Shown: positions 1 through 27,000, counted from the first letter of the stretch. The stretch is DNA of 64,000 nt from Beijerinckiaceae bacterium (GCA_037446355.1 JBBIIT010000003.1:22751-86750); one strand, 5' to 3'. Translations and numbers: made by a program. The notes: a model not told the origin generated them from the sequence alone.

Positions 1-621
1 GGCCAGAGCGAACTCGTGGAGGCGCTTTCCGGCCAACGGCCGATACGCCTCGGGCAAATCCTGGTCAGTGACAAGAATTTCGAACCGGTGCGTGCGGATT
101 TCGATCGCTTCAAGGTGTTCGGTTTGCCGGAAGAGCCGCTGAAAAACGCCACTGTGCCTACGATGACGGTGTCAGAGAACATGGCCTTCCGCAAATTCGA
201 CAAGGCGCCGATCTCGAAGTTCGGCTTCTGGTTGTCGCCGGGTCCGATGCGCGCCAAGGCGCGCGATCTCATCGGCCGCTACAACGTCAAGACTCCCTCT
301 ACCGATACGCCCATTCGCGATCTTTCGGGGGGCAACGTCCAGCGCGCGGTGCTGGCGCGCGAACTCTCCGAGGACGTCGACGTTCTCGTCGTCGCCAATC
401 CGTGTTTCGGCCTCGATTTCGCTTCGGTGGCCGACATTCGCGCCCAGATCGTCGAACAGCGCAATCGCGGCGCGGCGGTGTTGCTAGTTTCCGAGGATCT
501 CGACGAGATTCTCGAAATTTCCGATCGCATCGCCGTCATGAGCGAGGGCAAGGTGGTCTATACGATCGACGCGGCGGCCGCGGACCGCACTACCATAGGT
601 CGACACATGGCGGGCCATTGA
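1..621 (+). CDS. Sugar/nucleoside-type ABC transporter ATP-binding protein, C-terminal half (5' end outside the window)
   Basis: The frame is open from base 1 ([11 protein letters not shown]...). It has the signature [15 protein letters not shown], a degenerate Walker B region ([12 protein letters not shown]) and the H-loop region [10 protein letters not shown] typical of the second domain of tandem ABC ATPases. Confidence 0.9.
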
Positions 622-4134: not shown

Positions 4135-4436
4135 CGAAGTCGAGCGCGAAGCCGTCGTCAAATTGCGTGCGCGCCACCTTCTGCGGCTACCGCACGAACT
4201 GCGGGCAATTCCGGGGATCCAGGACTTTAGGGCGACGGCGAGGTCGTCCGCTTTCGTGCGAGGTCCGCCGCGAGTTCCGGCCGCTCTATAAGAACGCAAC
4301 AAATTCAATCTCATGAGACGGCATTACGAATTCGTTAACACTGATTTACATTGGCCAACTAAATATGCTAGCGATGAGCGACAATGCAAAATGCAAACAA
4401 ATGCCGCGATGGCCAAGGGTCATTTGGGGGCCAGGG

Positions 4437-5756
4437 ATGCGTCGTTCGTCTAGGATTTTGGAAATCGCGGTGCTGGCGAGCGTCAGTTTCGGCGGAACAG
4501 TCGCGGTTCGCGCGCAGAATGCGAGCAATGCCGCGCCGGCCTTTGACTGGACCGGATTTTATATCGGCGGCCACATCGCGGAGGATTTCACCAGCACGCT
4601 TTATAAGCGTCCTTTAGATCCGTCGCTCGCCGACACGACGATCGGCTCGATTGGCGACAAGGCGGGCGTCGGCGCCTCCGTCGGATTTAACTACCAGTTT
4701 TCGCGATGGGGGGTCGTCGGCCTCGAAGCGACGGAAACGTGGATGGACGCGCCAGTGCGCGAACTCGGTTCTTCCAACGATTTTCTTGAACATATCGATT
4801 CTGTCGCGGCCGTGAGCGCGCGCGCGGGCCTGCTCGTTCGGCCGGACACGATGGTGTTCGGTTCGGTCGGGCCGGCTTGGATGCGGGTCAATGGCTTCAA
4901 GGGATTTGGCCAATCGATGAACGCCATCGTGCCCGGCGTTCAGCTCGGCGCGGGCTTCGAGACGTTTATCACTCGCAACGTCTCCCTGCGCGTCGAGGGT
5001 TCATATACCGGCGCCACTCAAGCGCTGGTGTTGAATAATTCCTTCGATCACTACTTGCCGTCGATCCTTCAAGTCCAGTTCGGCGCCGAATATAAGTTCG
5101 ATGCGCCGGGCGGCTGGGGTTTCAAAGACGTCGCCGTATCGGATGCTGTCGGCGCGCCGCCGAAATGGACGGGGTTCGAAGTCGGCGGGTTTGCTTCGGT
5201 GAACGGCAATCAAATGGGGTATTCGGACCTCAACCAGGGTGATTCCGGTCCCTATACCCGGTTCGGGATCGGCGGCGGCGCATTCGTCGGCGCAAACTAC
5301 CAGCTCAACGACCGCTTTGTCGTCGGCGCCGAACTCAGCGGAAACTACAATCATGCGCGCCTAGTGAACGCCGCCGGCACGAACGGCTATCTCGGCCCCC
5401 TCTTCGATTTCGCGACGATCGAGAATTTCATGGCCCTGACCGGACGGGTCGGCGCGCTTCTTTCGCCCGGCACGCTCATCTACGTCAAAGCCGGCGGCGC
5501 CTGGGTCCAGACGACGACCGATTTCGGTTACTGGAACAATGTCGCTCCGAACTCGACAGGTTCGCGGACCATGGGCGGCTATCAGGTCGGTTTGGGCGAT
5601 GAGACTTTTATCACGTCGAACGTGAGCTTGCGGTTCGAGACAATTTACACGCACCCCAGCGGCACGATCAGTTTGAACGGTAGCGTCTTTCCGAACCAAT
5701 TCGCGCTGCGTCCGGCCGTTCTTTCCGCGACCAGCGGCGTAGCCTATCATTTTTGA
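4437..5756 (+). CDS. Outer-membrane protein with two tandem Omp25/RopB-like beta-barrel domains
   Basis: Signal peptide ending AVRA-Q. Two similar halves begin DWTGFYIGG and KWTGFEVGG, each with GxxxGxNYQ, xRxGxL...TxxY and LRxE motifs; terminal YHF. ATG 4437 chosen over upstream in-frame starts. Confidence 0.8.
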   Translation: MRRSSRILEIAVLASVSFGGTVAVRAQNASNAAPAFDWTGFYIGGHIAEDFTSTLYKRPLDPSLADTTIGSIGDKAGVGASVGFNYQFSRWGVVGLEATETWMDAPVRELGSSNDFLEHIDSVAAVSARAGLLVRPDTMVFGSVGPAWMRVNGFKGFGQSMNAIVPGVQLGAGFETFITRNVSLRVEGSYTGATQALVLNNSFDHYLPSILQVQFGAEYKFDAPGGWGFKDVAVSDAVGAPPKWTGFEVGGFASVNGNQMGYSDLNQGDSGPYTRFGIGGGAFVGANYQLNDRFVVGAELSGNYNHARLVNAAGTNGYLGPLFDFATIENFMALTGRVGALLSPGTLIYVKAGGAWVQTTTDFGYWNNVAPNSTGSRTMGGYQVGLGDETFITSNVSLRFETIYTHPSGTISLNGSVFPNQFALRPAVLSATSGVAYHF

Positions 5757-5800: not shown

Positions 5801-5880
5801 GTCTTGTGTGCGTTTTCGTGTCGTGACTTTGGTCAATGAGCCGCGCCGCCGCGCACGAAAACTCCGGAGCGAGACTGCCC

Positions 5881-6198
5881 ATGGATAAGACGCCTGCGCC
5901 TTCGGACAGTTCCGCCGTTTCGTCGGATTCGTCGCGGTCCGCCTCCGTGCGTTGGAACGATTCGACGATGGCCACTCACTTCGCAAACGTGGTGAATGTG
6001 CAGAGCACGCGCGAGCAAGTGGACTTGTTTTTTGGCTTGAACCGAACCTGGAACTCCGGTGGCGACGCGCAAGTGACGGTCGATCTGGCGAATCGCATTA
6101 TCCTGACGCCGTTCGCGGCGAAGCGGCTTCTCAGCGTTCTCGGCGGCGTCCTGCGCGAATACGAAGGCCGCTACGGAGCGCTCGATCTCGATCGGTAA
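5881..6198 (+). CDS. DUF3467-family protein
   Basis: STMATHFANVVNVQSTREQVDLFFG and RIILTPFAAKRLLSVL match this family as I recall it; GGAG upstream of ATG 5881. Confidence 0.7.
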   Translation: MDKTPAPSDSSAVSSDSSRSASVRWNDSTMATHFANVVNVQSTREQVDLFFGLNRTWNSGGDAQVTVDLANRIILTPFAAKRLLSVLGGVLREYEGRYGALDLDR

Positions 6199-6204
6199 GC
6201 AGCG

Positions 6205-8070
6205 TTGAACGGCCCTTCGCACAACTGGTCCGAACTGGCGCGGACCGAAGACGCCGGCTCGGCGGCGGGGCGGGACGCCGGATTGTGGAAGCGCCTTGGC
6301 GAGGAAGCCGAACTCGCCGATATCGTCCAAGTCTGGCTGACGTTGCAATGCCAAATGATCGCCGGCGCCGCGCGGGGCGTAGTCTTGCTGCCGGGCGCGG
6401 CCGCGAACAGTTTCGATGTCGCCGCCATATGGCCGGAGGGTTCGGCGCGGTCCTCGACGCTGGCGGAGATCGCGGAACTCGCGCTGCGTGAAAAACGTGG
6501 CGTCGCGGGCGGCGAAGGCGGATCCGGGAGCGGGCAAGTTGCGTTCCCGATTCTGCTCGAGGGGGAGTTGAAGGGCGCGGTCGCCGTGGCGCTGCAAAAC
6601 GCCCGAGGCGACGACCCCAAGAACGCTCTGCGCCAATTGCAGTGGGGGGTCGCTTGGATCCGCGAGAAGCTGGAGCGCCGGCGCGTCGCCGGGTTGGACC
6701 GCCTGCTCGGCAAATCGCGCGCGGCGCTGGACCTGCTGGGCGACGCGCTTGGCCGCGAGGGTTTTGAAGCCGCGGCGATGGCGACGGTCACAGGCCTGGC
6801 GGTCCGCTGCCAATGTTCCCGGGTGAGTCTGGGCGTGCGACGCGGGCATTCGGTCGTAGTGAAGGCCATCTCGCATAGCGCGCAGTTCGGGCGTCGGATG
6901 ATGCTGGTCAGCGGGCTCGCAGCGGCGATGGACGAAGCGCTCGATCAGCGTTGCTTGATCCTTTATCCTGCTCCGGATGAACAGATGCTGGCGACGGCCG
7001 CCCATGCCGAGCTTTCGCGCGCACAGAACGACGGGCATGTCCTGACGATCCCGATGCTCGCCGCGGACAGCTTCGTCGGCGCAATGTCGTTCGAACGCCC
7101 CGCCGACGCGCCCTTCGATCAGAATACGATCGATCTGCTCGAACTCGCGGTGTCGATCGTCGGACCGATTCTGGAGGAGAAGCGTCGCAACGATCGCTGG
7201 CTGATCGCGAAGGCTGGAGAGAGTTTGCGCGTTCAGCTCGCGCGCCTGTTCGGTCCGGGCCATCTCGCGCGCAAGTTGGTCGCGATCGCCTCGATCGCGG
7301 CGGCCCTGTTCCTCTCGCTGGCGCGGTCCGAATACAAGGTCAACGCGGAATCACAGATCGAGGGCCTGATCCGTCGCGCTGTCGTGGCCCCCTATGACGG
7401 CTACATCAAGGACGCGCTGGCGCGCGCCGGCGACAGCGCGAAAGAGGGCGAGGTGCTCGCCGTTCTCGAGGACCGCGACTTGTTGCTCGAACGCCTGAAA
7501 TGGGTGACGGAGCGGCAGCAGCGCCTCTATGAATACGACAAGGCGCTCGCGGCCAGACAACCCGCCGTGGTCAATGTCATTCGAGCGCAAATCGATCAGG
7601 CGGACGCGCAGATCAAGCTGATTGACGAGCAAATCGCGCGCGTCAAACTGCGTTCGCCGATCGACGGTCAGATCGTCTCCGGCGACCTGAGCCAACTGAT
7701 CGGCACGGCGGTTCAGCGCGGACAGACATTGTTCGAGATCGCGCCGTTGGAAGTGTATCGTATCATTCTCGACGTCGACGAACGCGAAGTCGCGGAAATC
7801 GAGCCGGGTCAGCGCGGCCATCTCGTTGTTTCCGCTTTGCCGACGCGCCAGATGCCGTTTGTCGTCGACAAGGTGACGCCGATCGCCGAGGTGCGCGGCG
7901 GCAGAAATGTGTTCCGCGTCGAAGGACGGCTGACCGAAAATCCCCCTGAACTGCGCCCGGGCATGGAAGGCGTCGGAAAGATCGAAATTGGCGAGCGAAA
8001 CATCGCCTGGATCTGGCTGCATCAGTTGATGGACGGGCTGCGTCTGTGGTCGTGGCGCTGGTCGACGTGA
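6205..8070 (+). CDS. GAF-domain-containing HlyD/membrane-fusion protein
   Basis: Two GAF-like segments (VAFPILLEGELKGAVAV; LTIPMLAADSFVGAMSFER), a TM helix (LVAIASIAAALFLSL), a lipoyl half-motif (VVAPYDGYI...GDSAKEGEVL), a coiled coil and LRSPIDGQIVSGDL. TTG start. Confidence 0.85.
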   Translation: MNGPSHNWSELARTEDAGSAAGRDAGLWKRLGEEAELADIVQVWLTLQCQMIAGAARGVVLLPGAAANSFDVAAIWPEGSARSSTLAEIAELALREKRGVAGGEGGSGSGQVAFPILLEGELKGAVAVALQNARGDDPKNALRQLQWGVAWIREKLERRRVAGLDRLLGKSRAALDLLGDALGREGFEAAAMATVTGLAVRCQCSRVSLGVRRGHSVVVKAISHSAQFGRRMMLVSGLAAAMDEALDQRCLILYPAPDEQMLATAAHAELSRAQNDGHVLTIPMLAADSFVGAMSFERPADAPFDQNTIDLLELAVSIVGPILEEKRRNDRWLIAKAGESLRVQLARLFGPGHLARKLVAIASIAAALFLSLARSEYKVNAESQIEGLIRRAVVAPYDGYIKDALARAGDSAKEGEVLAVLEDRDLLLERLKWVTERQQRLYEYDKALAARQPAVVNVIRAQIDQADAQIKLIDEQIARVKLRSPIDGQIVSGDLSQLIGTAVQRGQTLFEIAPLEVYRIILDVDEREVAEIEPGQRGHLVVSALPTRQMPFVVDKVTPIAEVRGGRNVFRVEGRLTENPPELRPGMEGVGKIEIGERNIAWIWLHQLMDGLRLWSWRWST

Positions 8071-8077: not shown

Positions 8078-10225
8078 ATGAGCCGCTCGCTGTTCAGCAG
8101 TTCATGGTATCGCGTTTCCGGTCTGAAGCCGCGCGTACGTTCGCACACGATCATTCATCGCCAAGTGTTCCGCGGCAAGGTCTGGTATGTGCTTCAGGAT
8201 CCGCAGTCCGGCCGATTTCACTCGCTGTCCGAGCTTGCCAACCTGATGGTCTGCCTGATGGACGGGCGGCGAACCGTTCAGGACATCTGGGATGCGGCGG
8301 GGCGCCAGTCCAGCGACGATCCGCCGACGCAGGATGAGACCATTCAGCTCCTCGCCCAGCTTCATAACTCCGACCTGTTGCAAGGCGAGTTTCCGCCGGA
8401 TTTCGACGAGATGGCCCATCGCGCAGAGACGGCCAATCAGCGCCGACTGGTCCAGCAGCTGCGTAACCCGATGGCGGTGCGAGTGCCGTTGTTCGACCCT
8501 AATCGCTTTCTCGACAAAACGCTTCCGCTTGTACGTCCATTGTTCACGACGGCAGGATTTATCGCTTGGCTCGCACTTGTGCTGACAGGGGTCGTGCTCG
8601 CCGCTTTGCACTGGCCTGAACTCACGAGCGACGTTTCCGATCGCGTGCTGACTGCGGAGAACGTGGCGGTCATCATGGCCGTCTATCCGATCGTGAAGAG
8701 CCTGCACGAACTCGGTCACGCCTACGCGACCAAGATTTGGGGCGGCGAGGTCCATGAAGTCGGCTTTATGCTGCTCGTGTTCATACCAGTGCTCTATGTC
8801 GACGCTTCGGCGTCCGCGGCGTTTCGACAAAAGTCGCGGCGCATTGTGGTCGGCGCCGCGGGCATTTTGGTGGAAATGGCGCTGGCGGCCCTCGCGACCC
8901 TAATTTGGCTACAGGGGAGCCCCGGATTGGGTCGAACGGTTGCGTTCAACGTGATGCTAATCGGCGGCGTTTCGACGCTGCTGTTCAATGGCAATCCGCT
9001 GCTGCGCTTCGACGGCTACTACATATTCTCGGATCTGATAGAAATTCCCAACCTTGCCGGCCGCGCCAACGCCTATGTTTTCTACCTCCTCCAGCGTCAT
9101 CTGTTCAGGGTTGACGACGTCGAGACCCCGATCGTGACGCCGAGCGAACGCAAGTGGCTACTGGGTTACGCAGTGCTTTCGTTTGCATATCGAATGCTGG
9201 TTTCGCTGGCGATCGCCCTGTTTCTGGCCACGAAGCTTCCGGCGATCGGGCTTGTCATGGCGTTTTGGTCCCTGACCGCCATCGCGGTTCTGCCGGTGTT
9301 CAAGGGTGTCAAGTATCTCGCCTCGAATCCTAAGTTGAACGGTCAGCGCCGCCGCGCCGTTGGCGTCGTCGCGGGCCTGTCGGCTCTCGTCGCGATTGTG
9401 TTCTTCCTGATTCCGCTGCCCTATTCTACGATAGCCGAGGGAGTCGTCATCGTCCCCGATCAGTCGGAGGTGCGTGCGAAAGCCGACGGATTCGTCGACA
9501 CGGTCGCGGCGGCTGACGGAGAACGCGTCGAGCCAGGCCGAACGCTCGTGGTGCTGGAAGATCCGATTCTGAAAGCCAAGGTCGCCGTGATCGAGGCGCA
9601 ACTGGAAGAGACCCGCCAGCGTTTGGAGGCGGTTCGCGTGCTCGACCGCGTGCAAACGGAAATGTTCCAGGAGCAGGCTGCGAATTTGGCCGAACGGCTT
9701 TCCGTCGCGCGTAAGCAATTGGCCAATCTGGACGTCACGTCGGATCAAGCCGGACGGTTCGTCCCCGCGCATTCGAACGATATGACCGGCAGGTTCGCGC
9801 GGCGCGGCGAATTGCTCGGCTACGTCGTGTCGGATGCGAACCCGGTGGTCCGCGTCTTGGCGCCGCAATCCGACGTTGAGTTGATTGAAAATCCCGACAC
9901 AACGGTGGAAGCGCGCCTGGTCGAGGACGTCGCCCGCGCGCGCGCGGCGAAAATCATCCGGTCCGCGCCCGGCGCGCAGGTCGAAGTGCCGAGCCTCGCG
10001 CTGACGACTCGAGGCGGCGGCGCCATCGCGCTCGATCCGTCCCGCACGCAACGGCCGCAATCGCTGTTCAGCTATTTCCAGCTCGACGTCGAGTTGCTCG
10101 AGCCCAGCGACTCCGGCCGGTTGGGATCGCGCGTCTACGTTCGTTTCAAGCACGGCGACGAGGCTTTGGCCTGGCGCATGTTGCGCTCGGCGCGACAGTT
10201 TTTCCTCGGCCAGTTCCATGTCTGA
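8078..10225 (+). CDS. PqqD-like domain / M50 (site-2) zinc metallopeptidase / HlyD-like fusion membrane protein
   Basis: N-terminal LMDGRRTVQDIW...LLAQLHNSDLL (PqqD-like winged helix). HELGH at 8704-8718 and NPLLRFDGYY at about 8993 supply the M50 zinc ligands. Several TM helices; C-terminal VRAKADGFV lipoyl/hairpin region. Confidence 0.85.
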   Translation: MSRSLFSSSWYRVSGLKPRVRSHTIIHRQVFRGKVWYVLQDPQSGRFHSLSELANLMVCLMDGRRTVQDIWDAAGRQSSDDPPTQDETIQLLAQLHNSDLLQGEFPPDFDEMAHRAETANQRRLVQQLRNPMAVRVPLFDPNRFLDKTLPLVRPLFTTAGFIAWLALVLTGVVLAALHWPELTSDVSDRVLTAENVAVIMAVYPIVKSLHELGHAYATKIWGGEVHEVGFMLLVFIPVLYVDASASAAFRQKSRRIVVGAAGILVEMALAALATLIWLQGSPGLGRTVAFNVMLIGGVSTLLFNGNPLLRFDGYYIFSDLIEIPNLAGRANAYVFYLLQRHLFRVDDVETPIVTPSERKWLLGYAVLSFAYRMLVSLAIALFLATKLPAIGLVMAFWSLTAIAVLPVFKGVKYLASNPKLNGQRRRAVGVVAGLSALVAIVFFLIPLPYSTIAEGVVIVPDQSEVRAKADGFVDTVAAADGERVEPGRTLVVLEDPILKAKVAVIEAQLEETRQRLEAVRVLDRVQTEMFQEQAANLAERLSVARKQLANLDVTSDQAGRFVPAHSNDMTGRFARRGELLGYVVSDANPVVRVLAPQSDVELIENPDTTVEARLVEDVARARAAKIIRSAPGAQVEVPSLALTTRGGGAIALDPSRTQRPQSLFSYFQLDVELLEPSDSGRLGSRVYVRFKHGDEALAWRMLRSARQFFLGQFHV

Positions 10226-12224
10226 CGTGGCGCTGTCCGTACCGGAGCGGTTGTTGAATTTGCCCGCACAGCGGCTTTGCCCGGAAGCGCCGGAACGGAA
10301 GGAAACCAATCTCGAGGGACTAGCGGCGTCGCTCCATTCGCGAGCGGTCGCAGCGATGTCGAGGCGGCGCGCACGATCGCTGCGCCGCATCCTCCCGCTT
10401 GTGAACGCTCATGAGGCCGAGTTCGCGGCCCTCTCCGACTTCGAATTGTTGCCGCGCGCTCGGGAGATAGCAATCGACCTCCGACGCGAGGCCGATTTCT
10501 CCGACGCATTAACGGGGCGCGCGTTTTGCCTGATCCGCGAATTGTCGGCGCGCATTCTCGGCAAGCGGCACTTCGACGTCCAGATCATCGGCGCTTTCGC
10601 TATGGTCAAGGGTATGCTCGCCGAAATGGCGACCGGGGAAGGCAAGACGCTGACCGCGACCCTGGTGGCGGGAACCGCGGGGCTCGCGGGCATTCCCATT
10701 CATGTGGTGACGGTGAACGACTATCTCGCTAGACGCGACGCGGAACTCATGCAGCCCCTCTATCGGGCCTTGGGTTTGAGCGTCGGGATCGTCGTCAGCG
10801 GCCAAAGCTTGCACGAGCGGCAAGCTGCGTATGCATGTGACATCACCTATTGCACCAATAAGGAATTAACCTTCGATTACTTGCGCGATCGCATGTTGCT
10901 CGGCCAAACGGTCGGCGATCTCAAGCTTAAGCTGGAGACGCTTCACAGCGATGCGCCTCGCGCGCGCGAACTGCGAATGCGCGGGCTTCATTTCGCGCTG
11001 GTCGACGAAGCCGACAGCGTGCTGGTCGACGAGGCGCGCACGCCGCTGATCATCTCCGGAGGCGCTGGCGCCGCTATTGGCGAAGAGACCGTCGGCAGCG
11101 CGCTGAAACTCGCATCCGCGATGGAGGCGGGCGTCGATTTCATCGTCTCCACCGAGGATCGAAGGATTTTCCTGACCGTGGCCGGCCAGTCGCGCGTCGA
11201 GCAGTTCGCGAAATCGCGCGCCGGACATTGGCGCAGCGTCGTCAGTCGAGAAGAGCTGGCGCGCCAAGCGCTTGCCGCCCTTCACCTGTTCCACAAGGGC
11301 GAGCAATATGTCGTCGCCGATGGCAAGGTGCAGATCGTCGATGAATATACCGGCCGCATCATGCCGGACCGGCTGTGGAGCGACGGGTTGCACCAGATGA
11401 TCGAACTCAAGGAAGGCTGCGCACTATCGGCGCGGCGCGAAACGCTCGCGCGCATAACCTATCAGCGCTTCTTCCGCCGCTATCGCCGACTGGCCGGCAT
11501 GAGCGGCACGATGCAGCCCGTGGCGGCGGAACTCTGGCGCGTTTATCGGCGTCGCGTAGTGACGATCCCGACCGCGAAGCCGGTGTTGCGTATCCATCGC
11601 CCCGATGTGGTGCTTGCGACCCAGGATGAAAAGTGGCGACGCATCGTCGAGCGCGTGGCGGCCCTCAATGCCGTCGGCGCTCCCGTGCTTATCGGTACGC
11701 GATCCGTCACCGCCTCCGAGCGCGCGAGCGAGATGCTAACCGCGGCGGGCTTTCGACACGAGGTTCTCAATGCGCTGCAAGACAAGCGCGAGGCGGAGAT
11801 CATTGCCGAAGCAGGGCGAAGCGGCCGGATAACGATCGCGACCAACCTCGCGGGACGCGGCACCGACATTCATCTGGGCGAGGGTGTGGCCGCGCTCGGC
11901 GGGCTGCACGTCATCATGACCGAACGCCACGACGCGCGCCGCATCGATCTTCAGCTTGCGGGCCGCGCCGGAAGGCAGGGCGAGCCGGGGTCGTTCGAGG
12001 CGATCCTATCGCTGGAGGATGACTTGATGAACAATGAGAATGGCGTCGCCTTGTCCGGGCTGGCCAAGTGGCTGGCGCGCTATGCGGGCGCCTGGGCGGG
12101 GCGGGGCGCCGCCGAATATGCGCAGAAGCGCGCCGAACGGCTGCACGCGCGGATGCGCGCCGACTTGCTCCGCTCTGATCGATGGCGAAAGCAGACGCTC
12201 GCCTTCACCGGACGGCCCGAGTGA
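10218..12224 (+). CDS. SecA-like DEAD-motor ATPase paralogue, C-terminally truncated (668 aa)
   Basis: MATGEGKT (10626), VTVNDYLARRD, DEADSVLVDEARTPLIISG, IVDEYTGRIMPDRLWSDGLHQ, ATNLAGRGTDI and QLAGRAGRQGEPG. The protein ends shortly after the start of the helical scaffold and overlaps the M50 gene by 8 nt. Confidence 0.9.
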   Translation: MSDVALSVPERLLNLPAQRLCPEAPERKETNLEGLAASLHSRAVAAMSRRRARSLRRILPLVNAHEAEFAALSDFELLPRAREIAIDLRREADFSDALTGRAFCLIRELSARILGKRHFDVQIIGAFAMVKGMLAEMATGEGKTLTATLVAGTAGLAGIPIHVVTVNDYLARRDAELMQPLYRALGLSVGIVVSGQSLHERQAAYACDITYCTNKELTFDYLRDRMLLGQTVGDLKLKLETLHSDAPRARELRMRGLHFALVDEADSVLVDEARTPLIISGGAGAAIGEETVGSALKLASAMEAGVDFIVSTEDRRIFLTVAGQSRVEQFAKSRAGHWRSVVSREELARQALAALHLFHKGEQYVVADGKVQIVDEYTGRIMPDRLWSDGLHQMIELKEGCALSARRETLARITYQRFFRRYRRLAGMSGTMQPVAAELWRVYRRRVVTIPTAKPVLRIHRPDVVLATQDEKWRRIVERVAALNAVGAPVLIGTRSVTASERASEMLTAAGFRHEVLNALQDKREAEIIAEAGRSGRITIATNLAGRGTDIHLGEGVAALGGLHVIMTERHDARRIDLQLAGRAGRQGEPGSFEAILSLEDDLMNNENGVALSGLAKWLARYAGAWAGRGAAEYAQKRAERLHARMRADLLRSDRWRKQTLAFTGRPE

Positions 12225-12232: not shown

Positions 12233-13051
12233 TCAGGTCTTGCTGAAAGCCGCGCAGAGATATGTCAAGTGGCCGTTGGCGTGCAGCCAGCGCAAGAGAT
12301 GGCCAGCCGACGGCCGGCGAGGAAACGTTCCCTCGTTTTGCGGCGCGGTGACACGATAGCTTGGCAGGGTCGCCCGCGTCGCGTCGAGCCGCCGCTCGAG
12401 TCGGAGGCCTGCTCGGGCCGCCGCCGAAATTAGCTCCTCCGGTTCGATCCACAATTGCGGCCAGGGTCCAAATTCGCTGCGCAAGATCGCCTCGATGTCG
12501 GGGACGGGCGTCGGAGCTTCGGCCCCGGGCGCGCGCAGCAGGATGTCGGACACCGCAAGCCGGCCGCCCGGACGCAGCACGCGCGCGACTTGATGGAGAA
12601 ACGCCTCGCGAGATCGAAAATGAAACATCGCCTCGATACAGATCGCGCGGTCGAAGCTCGCGGCTTGCAATGGCAACGCGCAGGCGTCGGCCTCGATCAG
12701 AGCGAGCGATCCGTCCCGCATCGGCAATGAACGGCAAATATCGAGTTGGCGCGGGTCGATATTGACCCCGGTGCGCCGCATTTCGCGCCATTGCCCGATC
12801 GCCTCCAGCGCACCGCCGAAGCCGCAACCGACGTCGAGGACATCCTGTTGGTCGCGAAGCGCCGCGAGCTCGATCAGCAAGTCCGTAAGTCGCGCCTGCG
12901 CGTCTTCGAATTCCTGCGCCGAGCAGGGCGTCGAAAGCGGCGGCGGGTCGTCCCAATATCCAAGATGCACGTCGCGCCCGGCATGGCCGCGCCGAAAACC
13001 TTCGATCAGGCCGTCGAAATAGGACGGAACGCGCGGCAATGTCAGCCCCAT
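12233..13051 (-). CDS. Class I SAM-dependent methyltransferase (VHLGYW type, RebM/sterol-MT-like)
   Basis: DVHLGYWD, motif I VLDVGCGFGG, ADACALP, FDRAICIEAMFHF and LRPGGRLAVSD. Start overlaps the stop of the upstream oxygenase gene. Confidence 0.85.
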   Translation of the reverse strand: MGLTLPRVPSYFDGLIEGFRRGHAGRDVHLGYWDDPPPLSTPCSAQEFEDAQARLTDLLIELAALRDQQDVLDVGCGFGGALEAIGQWREMRRTGVNIDPRQLDICRSLPMRDGSLALIEADACALPLQAASFDRAICIEAMFHFRSREAFLHQVARVLRPGGRLAVSDILLRAPGAEAPTPVPDIEAILRSEFGPWPQLWIEPEELISAAARAGLRLERRLDATRATLPSYRVTAPQNEGTFPRRPSAGHLLRWLHANGHLTYLCAAFSKT

Positions 13052-13860
13052 CCGTAAACGCCGAAACCGTCGCTTCGCTCCGCCATGAAACTGCAAGCGG
13101 TCCAGCGCGTCGTCGCGCCGATCACGGGCGTGACGCGGTGCAGGTGATGGCCGGAGTTGAATACGATGAGGTCGCCGGGATCGAGCGTGAACGCGACCTT
13201 CTCCGCGGCGTCAAGGTCCGCGCGGACCGCGTTGCGGTTACTGTCCACGATGCGTTGGCCCGGCGCTTCGGGGTGAATGTTGAAAACCTCCAGCGATCCG
13301 CCCGAGTCGGCCTTCGAAAAGGCGATCACGAACGAGAACAATCGTGGACGGATCATAGGCGTAAGCAGCCGATAGCTTGGCCGCGCCGCCTGCTCGTCGT
13401 CGAAATGGGCGGGAATGTATCCGCCCGGCAAATGGGCGCGGATCGTTGTGAACATATATTGGGATCCCGGCGTTGGCCCCGGCGGCGCGGAATAGGGACG
13501 CCCCTCGTCGAGCGAGGACAGCAGCGCGGTCACGCGCGGCTCCAGCGCGAGCCGCCCGCCCGCCAACCGCGCGAGGCCGTCGCGAAATCCCGGCGTCGCC
13601 GCGAAATAGTCGCGCAGGTCCGGATGGGCCAGATTGAGGTTCGCGCCATAGAAGAAGGCGGCGAACTTGGCGGGAAACTCGGTCTTGATAAGCCCGTGCC
13701 GCTCCGCCGCAAGTTCCGCGCAGATAGTGTCGCAAAGTTCGCGCTCGATCACCCGCTTGACCACGACGCCGTCGATCGCGCGCGCGCGCAAGCGCGACAG
13801 AACGTCCGCGTGCTGGGGCGCCTGACTAGCGTCGAAGGAGACCGTGCGAAAAAATGTCAT
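13042..13860 (-). CDS. 2OG-Fe(II) oxygenase
   Basis: HxD (IPAHFDDE), GGSLEVF, PGDLIVFNSG, HLHRVTPV and RWT: the facial triad plus the 2OG-binding Arg. Confidence 0.8.
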   Translation of the reverse strand: MTFFRTVSFDASQAPQHADVLSRLRARAIDGVVVKRVIERELCDTICAELAAERHGLIKTEFPAKFAAFFYGANLNLAHPDLRDYFAATPGFRDGLARLAGGRLALEPRVTALLSSLDEGRPYSAPPGPTPGSQYMFTTIRAHLPGGYIPAHFDDEQAARPSYRLLTPMIRPRLFSFVIAFSKADSGGSLEVFNIHPEAPGQRIVDSNRNAVRADLDAAEKVAFTLDPGDLIVFNSGHHLHRVTPVIGATTRWTACSFMAERSDGFGVYGWG

Positions 13861-13874
13861 GCGTTGCGTCCGCC

Positions 13875-15212
13875 CTACCTCGCCCCCGGCGGGGGAAACA
13901 CCCAGAAAAACTCGCCCGATCGTCCGCCGACTCGCGCCGCCTCGTCCGTGAGGAACGCGGCCTCTCGCTCGATCGCCCCGCGCGGCCAGCCGAGGCACGA
14001 GCGCATCTTGAGCGATGTCGGATCGTAGTCCAGCAGGTGCTGCGGCGGCGAGCGAACCATCAGCGCCGAGGGCAGTACGACGCAATGATAGACGCGCAGC
14101 GCACACGGCATGCGACGCGCGCGCTCGAAATTGCGACGAAAGCCTTCGGCGTTATCGCCGGGAAGCCCCATGATGATCTCGACCGCCAGCGTCGCGACCT
14201 CGCCGAGTTCGCGCACGTTGTTGTCGAATTTCGCTTCGTCGTATTTGCGGTCGACGTTGGCGAGAACGTCATTGTCGAAGGATTGCAGGCCGATGCCAAC
14301 ATAGGCGTTGCCGACGCTGGCGAGAAAGTCGATATGCTCGCGCCGCACTTTGGCGGGATAGACTTCGCAGATCAGACCACGATCGTTCAGAAATCCGGTT
14401 CGCTGTTGAGCCGCGCGCAGGTTCTGGAACGCGGCCTGATTGAGGTTGAGCCCGGCGTCCGCCAACAGCGCGCCTGTTAGGCCCATCCGTACCATGGAGT
14501 CGAATTCAACTTCCAGGCTCTCTCTCGTGCGCACGCGTTTGGGCGATTCCATCGTGCCCCATTCGCAAAACGAACAGGTGAACGGACAGCCGCGATAGGT
14601 CTGCAACACACCCAGCCCGCCGCGCGGCACCAGGTTCATTTCATAGGGCGACGCGAGAAGGTTGAGATCGCCGAGCGGACGGGCTCGTGTCTCTTTCCAT
14701 GCGCCGTCGACACGGAAGGCCACGCCGGAAATCTGCGCGAGTCCCGCCGGCGCGCGGTCCCGCAATTCGACGATCTCGACAAACGTGTCCTCCCCTTCGT
14801 TGATGACGAGGAGATCGACGGCGGCGCCCTTAGCCCTGTGCGGCTCGTGGTCGAGCATCACGGGGCGAGCAGAAGGCCCGCCAAATACAATCAGGCGCGA
14901 GGGATCGGCTTTCTTCAACAGACCGACCACGTCGAGGAAGAATGGAAACGACCAGAAGAAGGCTGAAATTCCAACAATGTCGGGGTCGAAACGGGCGACC
15001 TCGCCCGCGACCAGCTCGCTCGACTTGTCCCCTGGCGTCAGGTCCCACACCCGCACGTCGAGGCCGGGAAGGGCCGCGCGGCGGATCGCGGCTTCGACCA
15101 TGTAAAGACCAAGATTCGGGATGAACTGCGGCATCGCGGGGTCGCGGTCGGGATAGCGCGCTAGCAACGCGACCCGGCGCCCCGCGCGCGGCGTCTGGCG
15201 CGGAAGGCTCAC
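13875..15212 (-). CDS. Cobalamin-binding radical SAM protein (paralogue 1)
   Basis: B12-binding domain (FDPDIVGISAFFWS, LIVFGGPSAR, LLVINEGE), CPFTCSFC and IIMGLPGD. GTG start at 15212 forms a GTGA overlap with the upstream paralogue. Confidence 0.85.
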   Translation of the reverse strand: MSLPRQTPRAGRRVALLARYPDRDPAMPQFIPNLGLYMVEAAIRRAALPGLDVRVWDLTPGDKSSELVAGEVARFDPDIVGISAFFWSFPFFLDVVGLLKKADPSRLIVFGGPSARPVMLDHEPHRAKGAAVDLLVINEGEDTFVEIVELRDRAPAGLAQISGVAFRVDGAWKETRARPLGDLNLLASPYEMNLVPRGGLGVLQTYRGCPFTCSFCEWGTMESPKRVRTRESLEVEFDSMVRMGLTGALLADAGLNLNQAAFQNLRAAQQRTGFLNDRGLICEVYPAKVRREHIDFLASVGNAYVGIGLQSFDNDVLANVDRKYDEAKFDNNVRELGEVATLAVEIIMGLPGDNAEGFRRNFERARRMPCALRVYHCVVLPSALMVRSPPQHLLDYDPTSLKMRSCLGWPRGAIEREAAFLTDEAARVGGRSGEFFWVFPPPGAR

Positions 15213-16549
15213 GCCGGAACCGCCGTCACGCCCGGGCCGAGGCTGCGTGGAAACGACCACCAGAACCGACCGGAATTGCCGCCTGCTCGGCGTGCCGCGC
15301 GATCGAGTTCCTCGCGCATCGCGCCGATCGCGTCCGCGCTCCAGCCAAGGCACGATTTCATAGCGAGATCGACGGGATGAAATTCGACATTCCACTCCGG
15401 GAGCGCGCGCGTCATCAGCGCATCGGGCAGCACGAGGCAATGATAGACGCGCACGCTCGCGGGAAGGCTTAGCGCATAGCCAAGCGTGCGGCGAAATCCT
15501 TCGGGCGTGTCGCCGGGCAAGCCGAATATGATCTGCAATTCGATGTTGGTTATAGCGGCAAGCTCGCGCACGATGCGTTCGAATCGCGGCGAGTCCGAGG
15601 GCCGTTGATGCAGCCTCAGCACTTCCGGGTCCATCGACTGCATACCGACGCCGAGATAGGCGGGCCCGATCTCGCCGAGGAATTCGAAATGTTCGTCGCG
15701 CACGACGGAGGGATAGATTTCGGCCCAAAACAGCGCCTCACTCAGCGCGCCGGTGCGACGATTGGCTTCGCGCAAATTGCGGAAGGCCTGGAGATTGAGA
15801 TTGAGGCCGGCGTCGAGCAGGAATACCGCCGGCGGCCGCAAGGCTTGAAAGGCCTGCAATTCCCGGGTGAGGTAGTCGACGGAGAAAGTCGACTTGAACT
15901 TGTCGCTCGCGCCCCATTCGCAAAAGCGACACGATAGCGGACATCCGCGATAACTCTCGACGTAGGCGACCTCATTGGGCGCGCATAGACCTATCTGAAA
16001 CGGCGAGGGGATTTGGTTGAGGTCCGCGGCGGCGACGCGGTTGGGAATTTTTCGCCATCCGGCCGCGGCGCGCACGGTGGCGCCGGGCACAGTGGCGAGG
16101 GTTTCGCGCGTGAGTTCGGGCAGGTCCGCCATTTCGCGGAATATGGCTTCGCCGTCGCCCTCGACGATCGCATCGAGATAGCGCGCGGGGTCGCGATAGG
16201 CGTCCAGGTCGAACAGCGCGCGCCGTGCCGAAGGACCGCCGAAAACGATGAGGCAACCGGGTCGCCTGCGTCGTATCTCGCGCGCCACGTCGATGAGACA
16301 GGCGGTCGACCAGACATAAATGGAGAAGCCGACAATCTCGGGTTCGAAGGCCAGAATTTCGCGCGCGTAGCCCGCGACGTCATCTCGTCCGAGATCGATC
16401 AGCTCGACAATATGCGCCGGGCGTTCCGGGTCGCCGACAACGGCCGCCTGAATTCGGCGCACCCCGTAGCTCGGCAGTTCCAGGCGCCCAAGTTCTTCGC
16501 CATCGGGGCGCGGCGTCAGGCAGGCCAAGACTATCCGTCGCGACGCCAC
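15209..16549 (-). CDS. Cobalamin-binding radical SAM protein (paralogue 2)
   Basis: FEPEIVGFSIYVWS, LIVFGGPSAR, IVEGDGE, CPLSCRFC and IIFGLPGD; GGGAG RBS before the GTG. Confidence 0.85.
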   Translation of the reverse strand: MASRRIVLACLTPRPDGEELGRLELPSYGVRRIQAAVVGDPERPAHIVELIDLGRDDVAGYAREILAFEPEIVGFSIYVWSTACLIDVAREIRRRRPGCLIVFGGPSARRALFDLDAYRDPARYLDAIVEGDGEAIFREMADLPELTRETLATVPGATVRAAAGWRKIPNRVAAADLNQIPSPFQIGLCAPNEVAYVESYRGCPLSCRFCEWGASDKFKSTFSVDYLTRELQAFQALRPPAVFLLDAGLNLNLQAFRNLREANRRTGALSEALFWAEIYPSVVRDEHFEFLGEIGPAYLGVGMQSMDPEVLRLHQRPSDSPRFERIVRELAAITNIELQIIFGLPGDTPEGFRRTLGYALSLPASVRVYHCLVLPDALMTRALPEWNVEFHPVDLAMKSCLGWSADAIGAMREELDRAARRAGGNSGRFWWSFPRSLGPGVTAVPA

Positions 16550-16707
16550 TTAATCTCCCGATCCATGCGGATGCCGGCGAGGGTAAGGCGAAGGCTCGGC
16601 CCGCGCAAGGCGCCGACCGCCGCCATCGGGTTTTGCATCGCTCCAGGCCGTGCTAATCACAACCCAGTCGCCGCGGCGCGGCGGATGGACCCAACGAGAC
16701 CCAGCGA

Positions 16708-17571
16708 ATGCTCCCTATTTCGACGCCGCGAAGCCTGCGAGGCTTTTACGTCCTGTCGGCCCTGGCGGCGGCGCCGGGAATGGCGCTAGCCGCACCGGGA
16801 GCATTCGATTGCGTCATGGAGGCCTCGCTGATCGTGAAAGTCGGATCCCCAGTCGCAAGCATCGTCGACGATGTTCAAGTAGATCGCGGAGCGGTGGTCA
16901 AAAGAGGGGACGTGATCGCGCACATCGCCTCTAAGGTCGAGGAATCGGCGGTTGCATACAACAAATTGCGGTCCGAGAGCACGGCGGAAATCGAGGCCAA
17001 GGCGGCGATCCTCGTACAAAAATCCGGAGTGCTCCGCCGAAAGCTTGGTTTGGCCAAGGAGCATGTCGGCGCTTCGCAGGACGTCGAGAACGCGACAGCG
17101 GAGTTCAACGTCGCGAGTCAGGAGCTGGAACTCGCCAAGCTCAATCATCACATGGCCGAAATAGAGTACGAGCGGTCCAAAGCCGAGATGGAGCTGCGCA
17201 CCATCCGAAGCCCCATCGACGGCATCGTGACCCAGCGTTCGATCGGGCCGGGCGAATATTTCCATCAAGAATCGTCGATCGCCACCATCGCTAGGGTCGA
17301 TCCTCTTTACGTCGAAACCTTTCTGCCGGTCAGCCTCTACCAACAGGTGAAGATCGGCGACGTCGCGCTGGTCCATCCCGCCGAGCCGATCGGAGGCGAG
17401 CGCGAAGCGAAAGTCACGGTCGTCGACCAGGTGTTCGACGCGGCGAGCGGCACCTTCGGGGTGCGTTTGGCGCTGCCTAACGCGGACGACGGGCTTCCTG
17501 CGGGACTACGGTGCAAAGTGACTTTCGGCGAAACAAGTGCGGCGCAAGCCTCGACGACGCCGAAACCCTAA
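16708..17571 (+). CDS. Membrane-fusion (RND/HlyD periplasmic adaptor) protein
   Basis: Hydrophobic N-terminus, FDCVMEASLIVKVGSPVASIV, VDRGAVVKRGDVIA, coiled coil, IRSPIDGIVTQR and VFDAASGTFGVRL. Confidence 0.85.
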   Translation: MLPISTPRSLRGFYVLSALAAAPGMALAAPGAFDCVMEASLIVKVGSPVASIVDDVQVDRGAVVKRGDVIAHIASKVEESAVAYNKLRSESTAEIEAKAAILVQKSGVLRRKLGLAKEHVGASQDVENATAEFNVASQELELAKLNHHMAEIEYERSKAEMELRTIRSPIDGIVTQRSIGPGEYFHQESSIATIARVDPLYVETFLPVSLYQQVKIGDVALVHPAEPIGGEREAKVTVVDQVFDAASGTFGVRLALPNADDGLPAGLRCKVTFGETSAAQASTTPKP

Positions 17572-17577
17572 TTCGAG

Positions 17578-18606: not shown

Positions 18607-18639
18607 CGCGCGCGACGATCTCAATCAGAGGGCTGATCG

Positions 18640-20166: not shown

Positions 20167-20957
20167 TGTCCGGCGCCGATTTGATCGAACTGGTGAAGGC
20201 GCTCAGGGCGCCCTACGGCTTGGAGCGATCCGTCAAGATCGAGTCCGGCGTGTTGTTCGACGACCGTTTTCTGATCAGCGTCCATCGCGATGCGTTGGGC
20301 GTCGATCCTCTCGGAAAGCTCGGGGCGATCGTCGCCGCTCAGGGCGCCCCGCGAGCGGTTGTGCGCGCTTTGGCGCAAGCGCTGCAAGGCGCCGATGTCA
20401 TTCATTTCGGACACGAGACGGACGCCCTCGGCGCTGTCCGCAAGATTTATTTCGAATATGCGGCGGCGGCTCGGCGATCGATGGCGCAAGATCGGCCGGC
20501 GCTGGTTCATTTCGCCTACAAGTGGAAGCCCGGCCGCGAACATGGATTCGCGCAAACGCGATATACTTGGGCGCCGGCGCCGACGCGGCGGGAACTTGAG
20601 GGTCGCGTGAACGCCTTGCTGCCGGTCGGATCGGCGCCGAGGGGCCGCAAAACGGCGCTCGCTTTGCTGGAACTGGCTTGCCGCGCGGCGGAAGCTCGCG
20701 AAATATTGCTGATGGAGGTCGACGAGCCCGGCAATGCCAGGCGTTCTCTCGATATCAACCTGTATGAGGCCGAGCTGCGTCTGCGCGATGTCGGAGATCT
20801 CGTCGCGACGATAGCGAAAGATTTCGCAATTCCCGGAGAACGACGCCAGGCGGTGTTCGCCGATCGCGGCGATCTCCTGCTCGGCCATCTCTCGGCCGGC
20901 GTCGGGCGTGATGGACAGGAATTCGTGACACTATATTATGGAATTGAAGCGCATTGA
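20166..20957 (+). CDS. Hypothetical protein, possible cyanobactin F-family (PagF/LynF-like) prenyltransferase homologue
   Basis: GLERSVKIESGVLFDDRFL resembles the PagF segment I recall as SLEASCKIESDKLIASRFL; C-terminal VTLYY; five beta-hairpin-like segments separated by helices. TGATG coupling to the halogenase. Confidence 0.5.
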   Translation: MSGADLIELVKALRAPYGLERSVKIESGVLFDDRFLISVHRDALGVDPLGKLGAIVAAQGAPRAVVRALAQALQGADVIHFGHETDALGAVRKIYFEYAAAARRSMAQDRPALVHFAYKWKPGREHGFAQTRYTWAPAPTRRELEGRVNALLPVGSAPRGRKTALALLELACRAAEAREILLMEVDEPGNARRSLDINLYEAELRLRDVGDLVATIAKDFAIPGERRQAVFADRGDLLLGHLSAGVGRDGQEFVTLYYGIEAH

Positions 20958-24097: not shown

Positions 24098-27000
24098 ATG
24101 GCTTTTCCGTTTCAGTCCGAGGGTTTGTTTGGACGCCCCAAGCGACCGACTCCAAGGAAGCCACGCAGCCGCTGGACGCCTCTGCACTGGTTCTGGCGCG
24201 ATGGACCGCGCGCCGCCCGCGCGCGCGCGAGTCGCGGCCGCCTAGCTTTCACGCCTCTCGAACCGCGTTTGCTGCTCAACGCGGACGTGCTCGCCATCAA
24301 TCTGACGCACGATCTAGGCGCGCCGCCGGTCGACCACTCGTTGATCGTTCAGTTGGTGCACGAGACCGAAAAGGTCAACAACCAAGCCGTCAACGTCCAG
24401 CGTGTCCAGATCGTCGACCAGAACAACGGCGCAGTGCTCGCCTTTGGCGATCTTGCCGCGATTTCCGCGGTTTCCATACACGACTCCGGCGCTGGCGCGG
24501 ATACGCTGACGATTGACGCGAATTCGTTCAAAGGTCTGGCGGCGCCGAAAATCTCGTTCGACGGCGGTTCGGGCCAAAGCCACATCGTCTTCGACAACTC
24601 GAGTCAAACGGATTGGACGCTGACCGGCGCCAATGCGGGCGTCGTCAGCGGCGACGGCGTGAGCCTGGCGTTCCAGGGCGCCGCCAATTTGACGGGCGGC
24701 GTCAACAACGCCGACATCCTGACCATAGACAAGGGCGGGACGTTGTCGGGGATCTTCGACGGCGGCGCGGGCGGCCACAATTCGCTCGTATTCGACAATG
24801 GGCCGCACACGACAGTCGCTTCGTCGGTCGGCCCGACCGGGCGGACGATCACGCTCGACGGTCAGTCACTCACTTATCTGAACGTCGATTCGACCAACGT
24901 TGGCGATCCCGCACTGCTCGACCTCAGCGCGAGCACGAATCTGAATCTCGAAGTGGCGCAGAGCGGCGCCAATCTGCATGTTTTCGGCGTCAATGGGTCC
25001 ACCTATGACATGACGCTGGCCCCCACGGCGGGTCAGGCGTTCGAGCTCAAGCTCGGTTCCGGCGATACGCTCAAGGTCGATGCGATCGATTTCGGCTCCA
25101 TCGCCTCAGGGACCGCGTTCAACATCGACGGCGCGGGCGCATCGATCGAGTTCGCGGGAAATTTGACCGACAATTCGGGCGTATCCGCTTCGGTCAGCGC
25201 TTCCGACACCAGCTCCATTACGACCGATATCGCCAGCGAAAGCCTGGCCCCTTCGGCCCAGAACGCTTCGATCACCCTCGATCAGGGCTACACGATCAGC
25301 GCCAGCACGATTTCGCTGAGCGCAAATTCGTCGGCGAGCGAGACGATTTCGAACATCAATTTGACGTCGCATCTCGTCACGAGCGCGACGATCAGCACGA
25401 CCAACAGCGCCCAGATCACTATCAACGGAACGTTGAGTTCAACGGGCGCCGTGTCTCTCGTCTCCAATGTCAATGTCAACGATTCCATAGCGAACAGCAG
25501 CGGCACGCTGATCCACTCGACGACGATCACGGCCAAAAACACTTCGTCGGTGACATTCGGATCCGCCTCCGTCGTGTCAGCGGGCACGCTCGATGCGGAA
25601 GCCAACACCAACGTGTCGGCGTCGATCAGCGTCCAGAGCATTGGCGCCGGGGTCATCCCCGGCTTCGTCCCCGCCTCGCTCCTCGGCGTCGCCGTTCAAG
25701 TCTCCATCGGCATCACCAATCAAACCACCGTCACGTTGGCCCCTGGCGGCGCCATCACGGTCGGTTCAGGGTCGATTTCGACCGCCAAACCGGTTGCAGC
25801 CTATATCGCCGCCACCGATGTCACCAACCTTTCGACCACGCTCTCTCTCGACGATCCCGCGTCGTTGCCGGTCGTCGGCAATGTCCTGGTGTTCAGCGCC
25901 CTCGATAGCGCGGACACGCTTTCGCGTACGACTGCGGTCGACGTCGGAAATCTGAGCGCCACCGCCGCGCCGTTATCGTCGGCGACTGCGGCGCTTTCGT
26001 CGTCCGGCGGCGATTTCTCGCTCGACACCACCAACAGCGGCGCGGTCGTGAATAATGAAACGTCCACGGGTCTGGGAACCGTGGAGATCAATGCGCCCGC
26101 GGACTCTGCGACAGTCGAAGTCTCCGGCGTCAATGTGAACGCCGGCGGTCTATCGGAGACGTCTCTCAGCAACACCAGCTACTCCGAGCTTGGCCATCTG
26201 GCGGCCATTTCGGTCGGCGGCCAAACGGAGGCGATCCTTCAATATGACGGCGTCACCGTCGGCGCCGACGGACTGGTCGTCTCCACCGAAGACGATTCCT
26301 CGATGACCGCGTCGTCGGTAGCGCCGAGTTTCGATCCGAACACGACGACCGAATCGGGCTCGTCGACCTCGGGCACGCAGATCGCGGTCAATCGAACCAC
26401 TTCCGTGATCTCCTACAATAAGGACACGGTCGCGATCATCCTGGGTTCCACGGTCAATTCGGGCGGCTCCGTTCGGGTTCAGGCCGTCGACAATGTCTCC
26501 ATTTCTTCGGACGCCGTGATGGCGGCGAACGCGACCTCGAGCGGCAGCGCGTCGGTCTCGGGAGGCGGCGCGCTTGCGGCCAATCTAATCAACGGGGCTA
26601 TCTCCGCCTCGATCGAGAGTTCCTCGGTCACGACGACTGGGACCGGCGACGTTCGGGTCTTGGCAGGCGATTCATCGACGATCGCGTCACGCGCGGAGAC
26701 GAGCGCGTCCGCGACCGGAACCTCGACCGCCGCGGGCGTCGCGGGAACCGTATCGCTTAACGCAGTCGGCTGGACCTTCGGGACCGGCGCCGCGGACCTG
26801 CTCGGCGCGGCTCTCGGCACAGTGCTCGGCACAAACAGTTTCTGGACCGACAACGCTCCGACCGACATCACCGCGGCGGGCAACAAGGCGAACGTTGTCG
26901 CCAAGATCACCGATTCGACCGTCGCCGCCGCCGGCGCTCTGCTCGTTCAGGCCGTGGCCGCGAGCGCGATCAACTCCACGATCACCAATGTTTCGCAGGC

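Follow-up and report, generated by a model that had tools for sequence, protein, structure and literature searches.

A shortened SecA paralogue from a Beijerinckiaceae bacterium as the candidate ATPase of a proposed protease-adaptor exporter for LEPR-XLL giant proteins

In textbook accounts, the general secretory pathway is driven by SecA. A 64,000-nt stretch of DNA from a Beijerinckiaceae bacterium (GCA_037446355.1, JBBIIT010000003.1:22751-86750; referred to below as the window, with positions counted from its first letter) harbors, at 10218..12224 on the plus strand, a gene for a 668-amino-acid (aa) SecA paralogue, here called short SecA, which possesses the ATPase motor of SecA and stops soon after entering the scaffold helix. 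We read its product as a secondary SecA_DEAD protein that is competent for catalysis and, like the main clade to which it belongs, an active ATPase. On balance, short SecA probably serves as the ATPase subunit in a type-I-like exporter that works independently of Sec and whose cargo would be the giant LEPR-XLL protein encoded nearby.

A SecA motor that ends within the scaffold helix

Translation of the ATG-to-TGA open reading frame (ORF) gives nucleotide-binding domain 1 (NBD1), the preprotein-binding domain, NBD2, and, after a linker, a stub of the scaffold helix ~40 residues long; nothing is present of the wing domain, the two-helix finger, or the C-terminal tail. Pfam assigns SecA_DEAD to aa 44-440 (E 5.6e-98), as well as P-loop_SecA, and places the preprotein cross-linking (clamp) domain at aa 294-396 (11097..11405, plus strand; SecA_PP_bind, E 1.3e-24), while no SecA_SW match was found in the 668 residues. 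The Walker A motif TGEGKT (aa 139-144, 10632..10649, plus strand) has T139, G140, G142, and K143 invariant in an alignment of 41 family members, and the Walker B motif D263-E-A-D266 (11004..11015, plus strand), which is DEVD in canonical SecA, is likewise invariant. Motif V (T542..G546-R-G-x-D550) is intact and invariant across the same members, and motif VI with its arginine finger, GRAGRQG (aa 582-588, 11961..11981, plus strand), keeps G582, R583, R586, and G588 throughout. The catalytic residues K143, E264, R547, R583, and R586 are therefore all invariant in the family alignment; together with the Pfam matches, they bear out the statement of the initial annotation, made from the DNA without database searches, that the motifs of NBD1, the preprotein-binding domain, and NBD2 are intact.

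The chain ends in a truncated scaffold helix (aa 625-664) followed by the conserved end ..LAFxG..E (12090..12221, plus strand; AlphaFold and family consensus). The scaffold-helix motif that had been quoted at about 12120 was located as QKRAERLHARMRADLLRSD at aa 636-654 (~nt 12123), where it aligns with the canonical AQxKVExxNFDIRKxLLxYD. The C-terminal consensus of the short SecAs reads aQ..aEr.ha..Rr.ll..d..l...LaFsG..e, in which Q636, R647, and G665 are invariant. An AlphaFold model built on the alignment of the 41 members (predicted local distance difference test [pLDDT] 87; predicted template-modeling score [pTM] 0.85) displays a single long terminal helix spanning aa 625-664, so that the chain ends ~40 residues into the scaffold helix; the early stop described in the initial annotation thus stands, but its distance from the start of the helix is nearer 40 than the 30 residues given there.

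Using Foldseek, the model superposed best on SecY-bound, substrate-engaged SecA (template-modeling score normalized to the query [TMq] 0.79; root-mean-square deviation 3.0-3.4 Å; 5eul and 6itc). TMq was 0.75-0.79 for SecY-engaged SecA with a closed clamp and 0.59-0.68 for free SecA, and this higher similarity to the substrate-engaged form suggests that the predicted state of short SecA is that of a closed clamp. The engineered fragment SecA-N68 (5k9t) was also among the matches.

The end point is conserved

We collected 96 short-type sequences, comprising 80 genome loci and paralogues from six phylum- or class-level lineages, and 94 of them end exactly at the aligned position of residue 668. 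The best 120 database clusters of short SecA share 59-79% identity with it and are nearly all 650-670 aa long. A tblastn search with the C-terminal third of the genome's own SecA found no trace of that region in any frame of the window, and a convergent gene ends 8 nt 3' of the stop codon. Truncation as a conserved, selected architecture is supported by these comparisons.

A decaying secA duplicate cut by a recent frameshift or nonsense mutation, for which the short length alone speaks, is consequently of negligible probability: a frameshift is ruled out by the shared end residue of 94 out of 96 relatives, and the narrow length range of the database clusters, the invariant catalytic residues, and the lack of a C-terminal remnant all argue against decay. 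The gene is as functional-looking, and its stop as clean, as had been proposed, and the homologues proved to end at the same point instead of continuing into a full C terminus. Elsewhere in the family, one of two short SecA copies (L128:10857-12852 and G006:C1:2799526-2801430) is split over two frames and the other has an in-frame TAA; these are either decaying genes or sequencing errors.

Short SecA is set apart from canonical SecA and SecA2

The genome also encodes a canonical SecA (the second SecA_DEAD match, a 1001-aa open frame on contig C13) and has a single SecY match (contig C60), with no second SecY. NCBIfam SecA models match short SecA over only the first ~490-550 of their 790-814 positions, and all scores fall below the cut-offs. 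The housekeeping models TIGR00963 and NF009538 gave 590 bits (cut-off, 800) and 611 bits (cut-off, 814), respectively, with the match ending at about position 490, and the SecA2 models TIGR04397, TIGR03714, TIGR04221, and NF012136 gave 540, 493, 437, and 415 bits for cut-offs of 1085, 930, 725, and 1100. In a comparison with PDB sequences, short SecA is ~42% identical to residues 17-553 of Bacillus subtilis SecA, and it aligns with Clostridioides difficile SecA2 up to chain residue 611.

To define family features, 84 short SecAs were set against 13 canonical ones encoded in the same genomes. The short family has DEAD for DEVD, lacks the variable insert of NBD2, and has nothing past residue 668, while the canonical SecAs run at least 180-246 residues further, some of them being cut by the end of the locus. 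A family-specific insertion of 19 residues (aa 230-248, 10905..10961, plus strand), located just 5' of the DEAD motif, is present in at least 80% of the short SecAs and corresponds to a gap in at least 80% of the canonical ones. A maximum-likelihood tree computed for the motor region parts the 13 canonical from the 84 short sequences by a single branch of length 1.0 and support 100, which settles the phylogenetic check proposed in the initial annotation as far as canonical SecA is concerned. The order within the short clade departs from the species phylogeny (e.g., Oceanospirillaceae are grouped with Desulfuromonadales) and for this reason fits a horizontal spread of short SecA.

The initial annotation described the missing part as the SecY-engaging third of SecA. 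The C-terminal loss is real, but the term is imprecise: a fragment of Escherichia coli SecA without the same domains, SecA-N68, retains high-affinity binding to SecYEG, binds signal peptides, and has a constitutive ATPase, but cannot translocate (PMC5603524). By analogy with N68, what short SecA has lost would be the translocation apparatus and the regulation of the ATPase, and not necessarily the capacity to contact SecY. The two have nearly the same domain set (PDB 5k9t; PMC5603524), although N68 is a laboratory fragment, while natural short SecA evolved within a different membrane complex and has ~60 additional residues, consisting of the linker and a part of the scaffold helix with the conserved terminal motif.

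A fixed module of adaptors, a protease, and short SecA

Short SecA is the last gene of a co-directional row (all plus strand) that starts with a gene for a DUF3467 protein (5881..6198, from the likely start M16 of ORF 5836..6198; Pfam E 3.3e-16) and continues with a GAF-domain protein carrying an HlyD-type adaptor (GAF-HlyD; 6205..8070) and a single chain in which a PqqD-like (RRE) domain, an M50 intramembrane metalloprotease, and an HlyD adaptor are joined (M50-HlyD; 8078..10225). The M50-HlyD chain has intact HELGH and NPLLRFDG motifs and matches the NCBIfam daptide leader protease NF041824 (E 2.3e-44); its stop and the ATG of short SecA overlap by 8 nt (ATGTCTGA). A third, small HlyD/biotin-lipoyl adaptor (16708..17571, plus strand) is encoded directly 3' of short SecA in most relatives and is displaced here by a 4.5-kb insert.

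The order GAF-HlyD, M50-HlyD, short SecA, and small HlyD is fixed in 80 loci of Alpha-, Beta-, and Gammaproteobacteria, Nitrospirota, Thermodesulfobacteriota, and Fibrobacterota. In all of them, short SecA lies within the M50/HlyD/GAF operon and never adjoins sec genes. The module genes yielded no ABC, RND, or MFS pump, and the sole ABC-like fragment of the window (1..621) is unrelated to the module. The genome has three TolC-family (OEP) genes, none of them on this contig, while several related loci have a linked TolC.

The LEPR-XLL giant protein is the likely cargo

Twelve kilobases 3' of short SecA and on the same strand, an ORF of 11,232 aa (24098..57796, plus strand) encodes a protein with a basic N-terminal leader and a LEPR-XLL motif at aa 53-69 (nt 24254-24304). 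Its N terminus matches the NCBIfam LEPR-XLL domain above the cut-off and is the only strong LEPR-XLL match in the genome; the leader lacks the hydrophobic core by which Sec signals are typically marked. Elsewhere in the genome, a 398-aa frame contains a second LEPR-XLL-like match (G000:C29:36714-36773), which is weak at 16.4 bits, or 18.1 bits with neighboring matches in the frame.

Of 401 sampled Pseudomonadota genomes, 35 encode a close M50-HlyD relative (E <= 1e-80), and a LEPR-XLL match occurs in every one of these; all 39 genomes with a strong LEPR-XLL match have M50-HlyD. In 24 of the 45 M50-HlyD loci, a LEPR gene is found on the same contig no more than 30 kb away, mostly within ~3 kb. 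Judging from this co-occurrence, the giant protein is the likely cargo of the module. The literature that we searched does not state a link between M50-HlyD and LEPR-XLL.

A Sec-independent exporter and the evidence that weighs against it

The exporter that we propose would consist of short SecA, the GAF-HlyD adaptor, the RRE-M50-HlyD protease-adaptor, the third, small adaptor, and a TolC whose gene lies elsewhere in the genome. In the M50 fusion, the PqqD-like domain would bind the basic LEPR-XLL leader of the 11,232-aa protein, short SecA would clamp the unfolded chain and through its ATP cycles feed it into the inner-membrane assembly, N terminus first and possibly during translation, M50 would remove the leader, and the adaptors together with TolC would carry the chain out. 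We infer every one of these mechanistic steps, ATP-driven pushing included. The suggestion of the initial annotation that the motor has been repurposed for export through the M50/HlyD complex is made plausible by the operon, the gene overlap, and the presence of a separate SecA and SecY, but it was not new, having been published in 2015 (see below).

Several points weigh against this proposal. The canonical pushing mechanism is impossible for short SecA, since the two-helix finger, which is thought to engage the substrate in SecA, is absent, and how a protein-conducting pore could be built from an M50 protease is hard to see. The strength of the association between M50-HlyD and LEPR-XLL (Fisher p 1e-28 to 1e-44) derives from genome counts that ignore shared ancestry, and a literature search turned up no experimental follow-up on secondary SecA_DEAD proteins. 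Related systems also exist in which the motor is missing or dead. Eight M50-HlyD/TolC/LEPR loci (L086-L093) have no SecA-like gene or other ATPase in the flanking ORFs that were scanned, and in L123, a closer locus, the GAF-HlyD, M50-HlyD, and small-adaptor genes are followed by a gene for a 2,850-aa LEPR protein, with the usual place of SecA empty and, here too, no ATPase gene in the flanks that were scanned. At three further loci, SecA-like genes at the usual operon position (L124:10667-12694, L126:10786-12369, and L127:6972-8891), which are divergent and were missed by our SecA search at E <= 1e-30, are ATPase-dead, with the lysine of Walker A, the glutamate of DEAD, and both motif V and motif VI missing; two of the three adjoin LEPR frames of 13,412 and 8,407 aa.

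The eight SecA-less loci belong to a distant M50-HlyD class (E 1e-37 to 1e-57) that also adjoins LEPR proteins. They hold (GAF-)HlyD, M50-HlyD, the cargo, sometimes a small HlyD, and TolC, whose presence was confirmed in four loci, and their genomes have a single SecA among the matches listed. The dead copy in L127 is that of Magnetococcus sp. PR-3, a genome that also has live copies, and a database search with it returned three relatives besides the query's own record; the ATPase-dead copies thus look sporadic, and they look fast-evolving. Since SecA-less loci and ATPase-dead copies occur, hydrolysis by a SecA subunit is not a universal requirement. A motor role is likely for the gene studied here and not universal across related systems.

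The length of the cargo differs between the two classes. At SecA-class loci, which are those of the M50-HlyD class carrying a SecA-like gene (a short SecA within 3 kb for at least 30 of 45), the median LEPR frame is 8,858 aa, compared with 3,129 aa at SecA-less loci (Mann-Whitney p 5e-5), where the adjoining frames in the genome sample are mostly 2,000-4,500 aa long. Our reading is that the protease-adaptor-TolC set is the core of the system and that the SecA derivative is an add-on mattering most for very long cargo. It is tempting, though distinctly speculative, to go one step further and regard M50-HlyD/GAF-HlyD/TolC as an undescribed export route for N-terminal LEPR-XLL signals, in which the SecA ATPase would be an optional booster for cargo of ~5,000-16,000 residues, perhaps threading it co-translationally. 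If so, the presence of the motor would scale with cargo length.

Genes surrounding the module

The 4.5-kb insert (12233..16549, minus strand) encodes a methyltransferase, a WelO5-like 2-oxoglutarate-dependent (2OG) oxygenase/halogenase, and two B12-radical-SAM enzymes; an insert of a similar kind, with a methyltransferase and a WelO5-like gene, is also found in locus L007. The region between the export genes and the giant gene (12233-23982) also encodes an O-methyltransferase, a tryptophan halogenase, a radical-SAM/SPASM enzyme, and three unknown proteins. O-methyltransferase and tryptophan halogenase genes recur near the module in the alphaproteobacterial loci L004, L006, and L008, the halogenase being found in L039-L044, L061, L062, and L066 as well. 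Because one co-directional gene row runs into the giant gene, the tailoring enzymes encoded between it and the export genes may modify the giant protein.

A gene for DUF3467 often joins the module as its fifth member and then comes first in order: it is found 5' of GAF-HlyD in 32 of 56 evaluable loci. Its core is highly conserved (FANVVNVQSTxEQVDLFFG ... AAKRL ... YExRxG; alignment A1), while the N-terminal ~25 residues are variable and probably disordered. An AlphaFold model of moderate confidence (pLDDT 64) has four strands followed by a helix. We considered a SecB-like chaperone and rejected it, as Foldseek gave no PDB match and a profile search of PDB sequences was empty; comparison with the genome's own SecB by hhalign gave a probability of 0.4%, i.e., no detectable relation. 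Directly 5' of the module, a gene for a 463-aa OmpA-like outer-membrane β-barrel protein (4365..5756, plus strand; two matches) is kept in the closest relatives only (L006, L008, and L009), and its membership in the module is uncertain.

Alternative roles of short SecA

Short SecA might mainly be a cytoplasmic receptor, holdase, or gate instead of a translocation motor. Its clamp would hold the unfolded giant chain or plug the inner-membrane assembly, ATP hydrolysis would only time the release, and the drive would come, for example, from translation, from the proton-motive force, or, outside the cell, from folding and calcium binding. The absence of the two-helix finger throughout the family agrees with such a role, as do the SecA-less sister systems that still adjoin LEPR proteins, the ATPase-dead genes that are kept at full length and in the same position beside the 13,412- and 8,407-aa LEPR frames, and the behavior of SecA-N68, which binds signal peptides and hydrolyzes ATP and cannot translocate (PMC5603524). 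Every catalytic residue is invariant in the 41 sampled family members, however, an indication that hydrolysis matters in the main clade, this gene included. The dead copies, one of which shares its genome with live ones, look sporadic and fast-evolving, and SecA is present where the cargo is larger, as expected of a power unit. We therefore regard a receptor or holdase as rather unlikely, although it is the alternative to be taken most seriously.

That short SecA is a SecA2-like accessory to housekeeping SecA and SecYEG, assisting the export of the giant protein or the insertion of the module's own membrane proteins, appears improbable. A second SecA working on the canonical channel has precedents in the SecA2 proteins of Gram-positive bacteria and mycobacteria, SecA-N68 binds SecYEG with high affinity without the same domains (PMC5603524), and Kamneva et al. 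placed the clade beside actinobacterial SecA2 (PMC4452313). Yet N68 cannot translocate through SecY (PMC5603524), the LEPR leader has no Sec-type hydrophobic core, and the gene is always in an adaptor/protease operon and never beside sec genes. Short SecA falls below every SecA2 cut-off, lowest for the mycobacterial and Listeria types, and the structure of Mycobacterium tuberculosis SecA2 is its weakest match to a full-length SecA. It also has no two-helix finger, which SecA2 proteins keep. Still less do we expect that the machine exports, at this locus, a small ribosomally synthesized and post-translationally modified peptide (RiPP) produced through the radical-SAM, halogenase, and methyltransferase genes next to it. 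For this reading speak the similarity of the M50 part to the daptide leader protease, its PqqD-like leader-binding domain, the tailoring genes that interrupt and follow the module here, and the recurrence of O-methyltransferase and tryptophan halogenase genes near it in other alphaproteobacterial loci. Against this, no small precursor gene turned up, though no systematic search was made, such enzymes are missing from most of the 80 loci, it is the LEPR-XLL protein that accompanies the module genome-wide, and the tailoring genes stand in one co-directional row leading into the giant gene, whose product they may modify. A Sec-independent exporter of the giant protein with short SecA as its ATPase remains the reading that we prefer.

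Comparison with known systems

Secondary SecA_DEAD proteins without SecA_SW were reported in 2015 to branch as a clade of their own, separate from canonical SecA (Kamneva, Poudel & Ward, PLoS One; PMC4452313). The conserved locus described there encodes Peptidase_M50/HlyD, GAF/HlyD, HlyD/biotin-lipoyl, and sometimes OEP proteins, as in Methylobacterium extorquens AM1 (META1p2399-2402), and the authors proposed that the SecA_DEAD protein had been co-opted as an ATPase replacing the ABC transporter, with M50 as a possible membrane pore; they gave the biological role as unknown. As the same observation and the same inference were published then, the idea of a repurposed SecA motor is a rediscovery of their in-silico proposal, and this prior publication of the gene family and the idea limits the value of the present finding. 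The gene at 10218..12224 is a member of that family and shows no architectural difference: SecA_DEAD is present, SecA_SW is absent or a fragment, the M50/HlyD, GAF/HlyD, and HlyD/biotin-lipoyl neighbors are the same, and the protein coexists with canonical SecA in a separate clade that appears to have spread by horizontal transfer. The locus differs from those published in having the small adaptor displaced by the tailoring insert and in lacking a linked TolC. The paper names no cargo, and a term search of its text found no DUF3467, PqqD-like domain, or halogenases. What we add is the LEPR-XLL protein as likely cargo, the SecA-less systems, the dead copies, DUF3467, and the family signatures; the paper was not searched for SecA-less systems or dead copies. 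In a review of tripartite pumps (PMC8277102), the mentions of M50 and SecA are irrelevant here.

Compared with housekeeping SecA (TIGR00963/PRK12904), short SecA has the same NBD1, preprotein-binding domain, and NBD2, all ATPase motifs, and the beginning of the scaffold helix, including its conserved Q, E, and R. Of the scaffold it has no more than this beginning, and it differs further in the absence of wing domain, two-helix finger, and C-terminal tail and in having the 19-aa insertion, DEAD for DEVD, a different N terminus, and scores below the family cut-offs. The SecA2 proteins of Gram-positive bacteria and mycobacteria are likewise second, non-essential SecA paralogues for special substrates. 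They keep the scaffold and the two-helix finger and act with SecYEG or SecY2. At ~760-790 aa (NCBIfam model and PDB chain lengths), they are longer than the 668-aa short SecA, which scores below all SecA2 models and whose genome, unlike those with SecA2-SecY2 systems, has no second SecY.

The closest parallel in domain content among giant proteins is that of Omnitrophota and Actinobacteria, in which SecA_DEAD domains were found inside the giant chains and suggested to aid export (bioRxiv 10.1101/2023.11.21.568195). In both cases, the SecA motor and preprotein-binding domains, without scaffold and wing, are tied to giant proteins; theirs lie within the giant polypeptide, while short SecA is the free-standing product of a separate operon gene. 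A widespread natural SecA that is stripped of its channel-inserting parts and wired to a protease, adaptors, and TolC would mean that the motor is reusable outside SecYEG. LEPR-XLL giants are among the largest bacterial proteins, and a real gap would be filled if they are the cargo.

With type I systems (HlyB-HlyD-TolC and LapB-LapC-LapE), the module has in common the HlyD adaptors, the presumed use of a TolC-family channel, a presumed cargo that is very large and repetitive, and, as its likely logic, export in one step. It differs from them in having no ABC transporter and in possessing three HlyD adaptors, one of them in a single chain with an M50 protease and a leader-binding domain. The signal of its presumed cargo is an N-terminal LEPR-XLL, while theirs is C-terminal, and the ATPase of the module, where present, derives from SecA.

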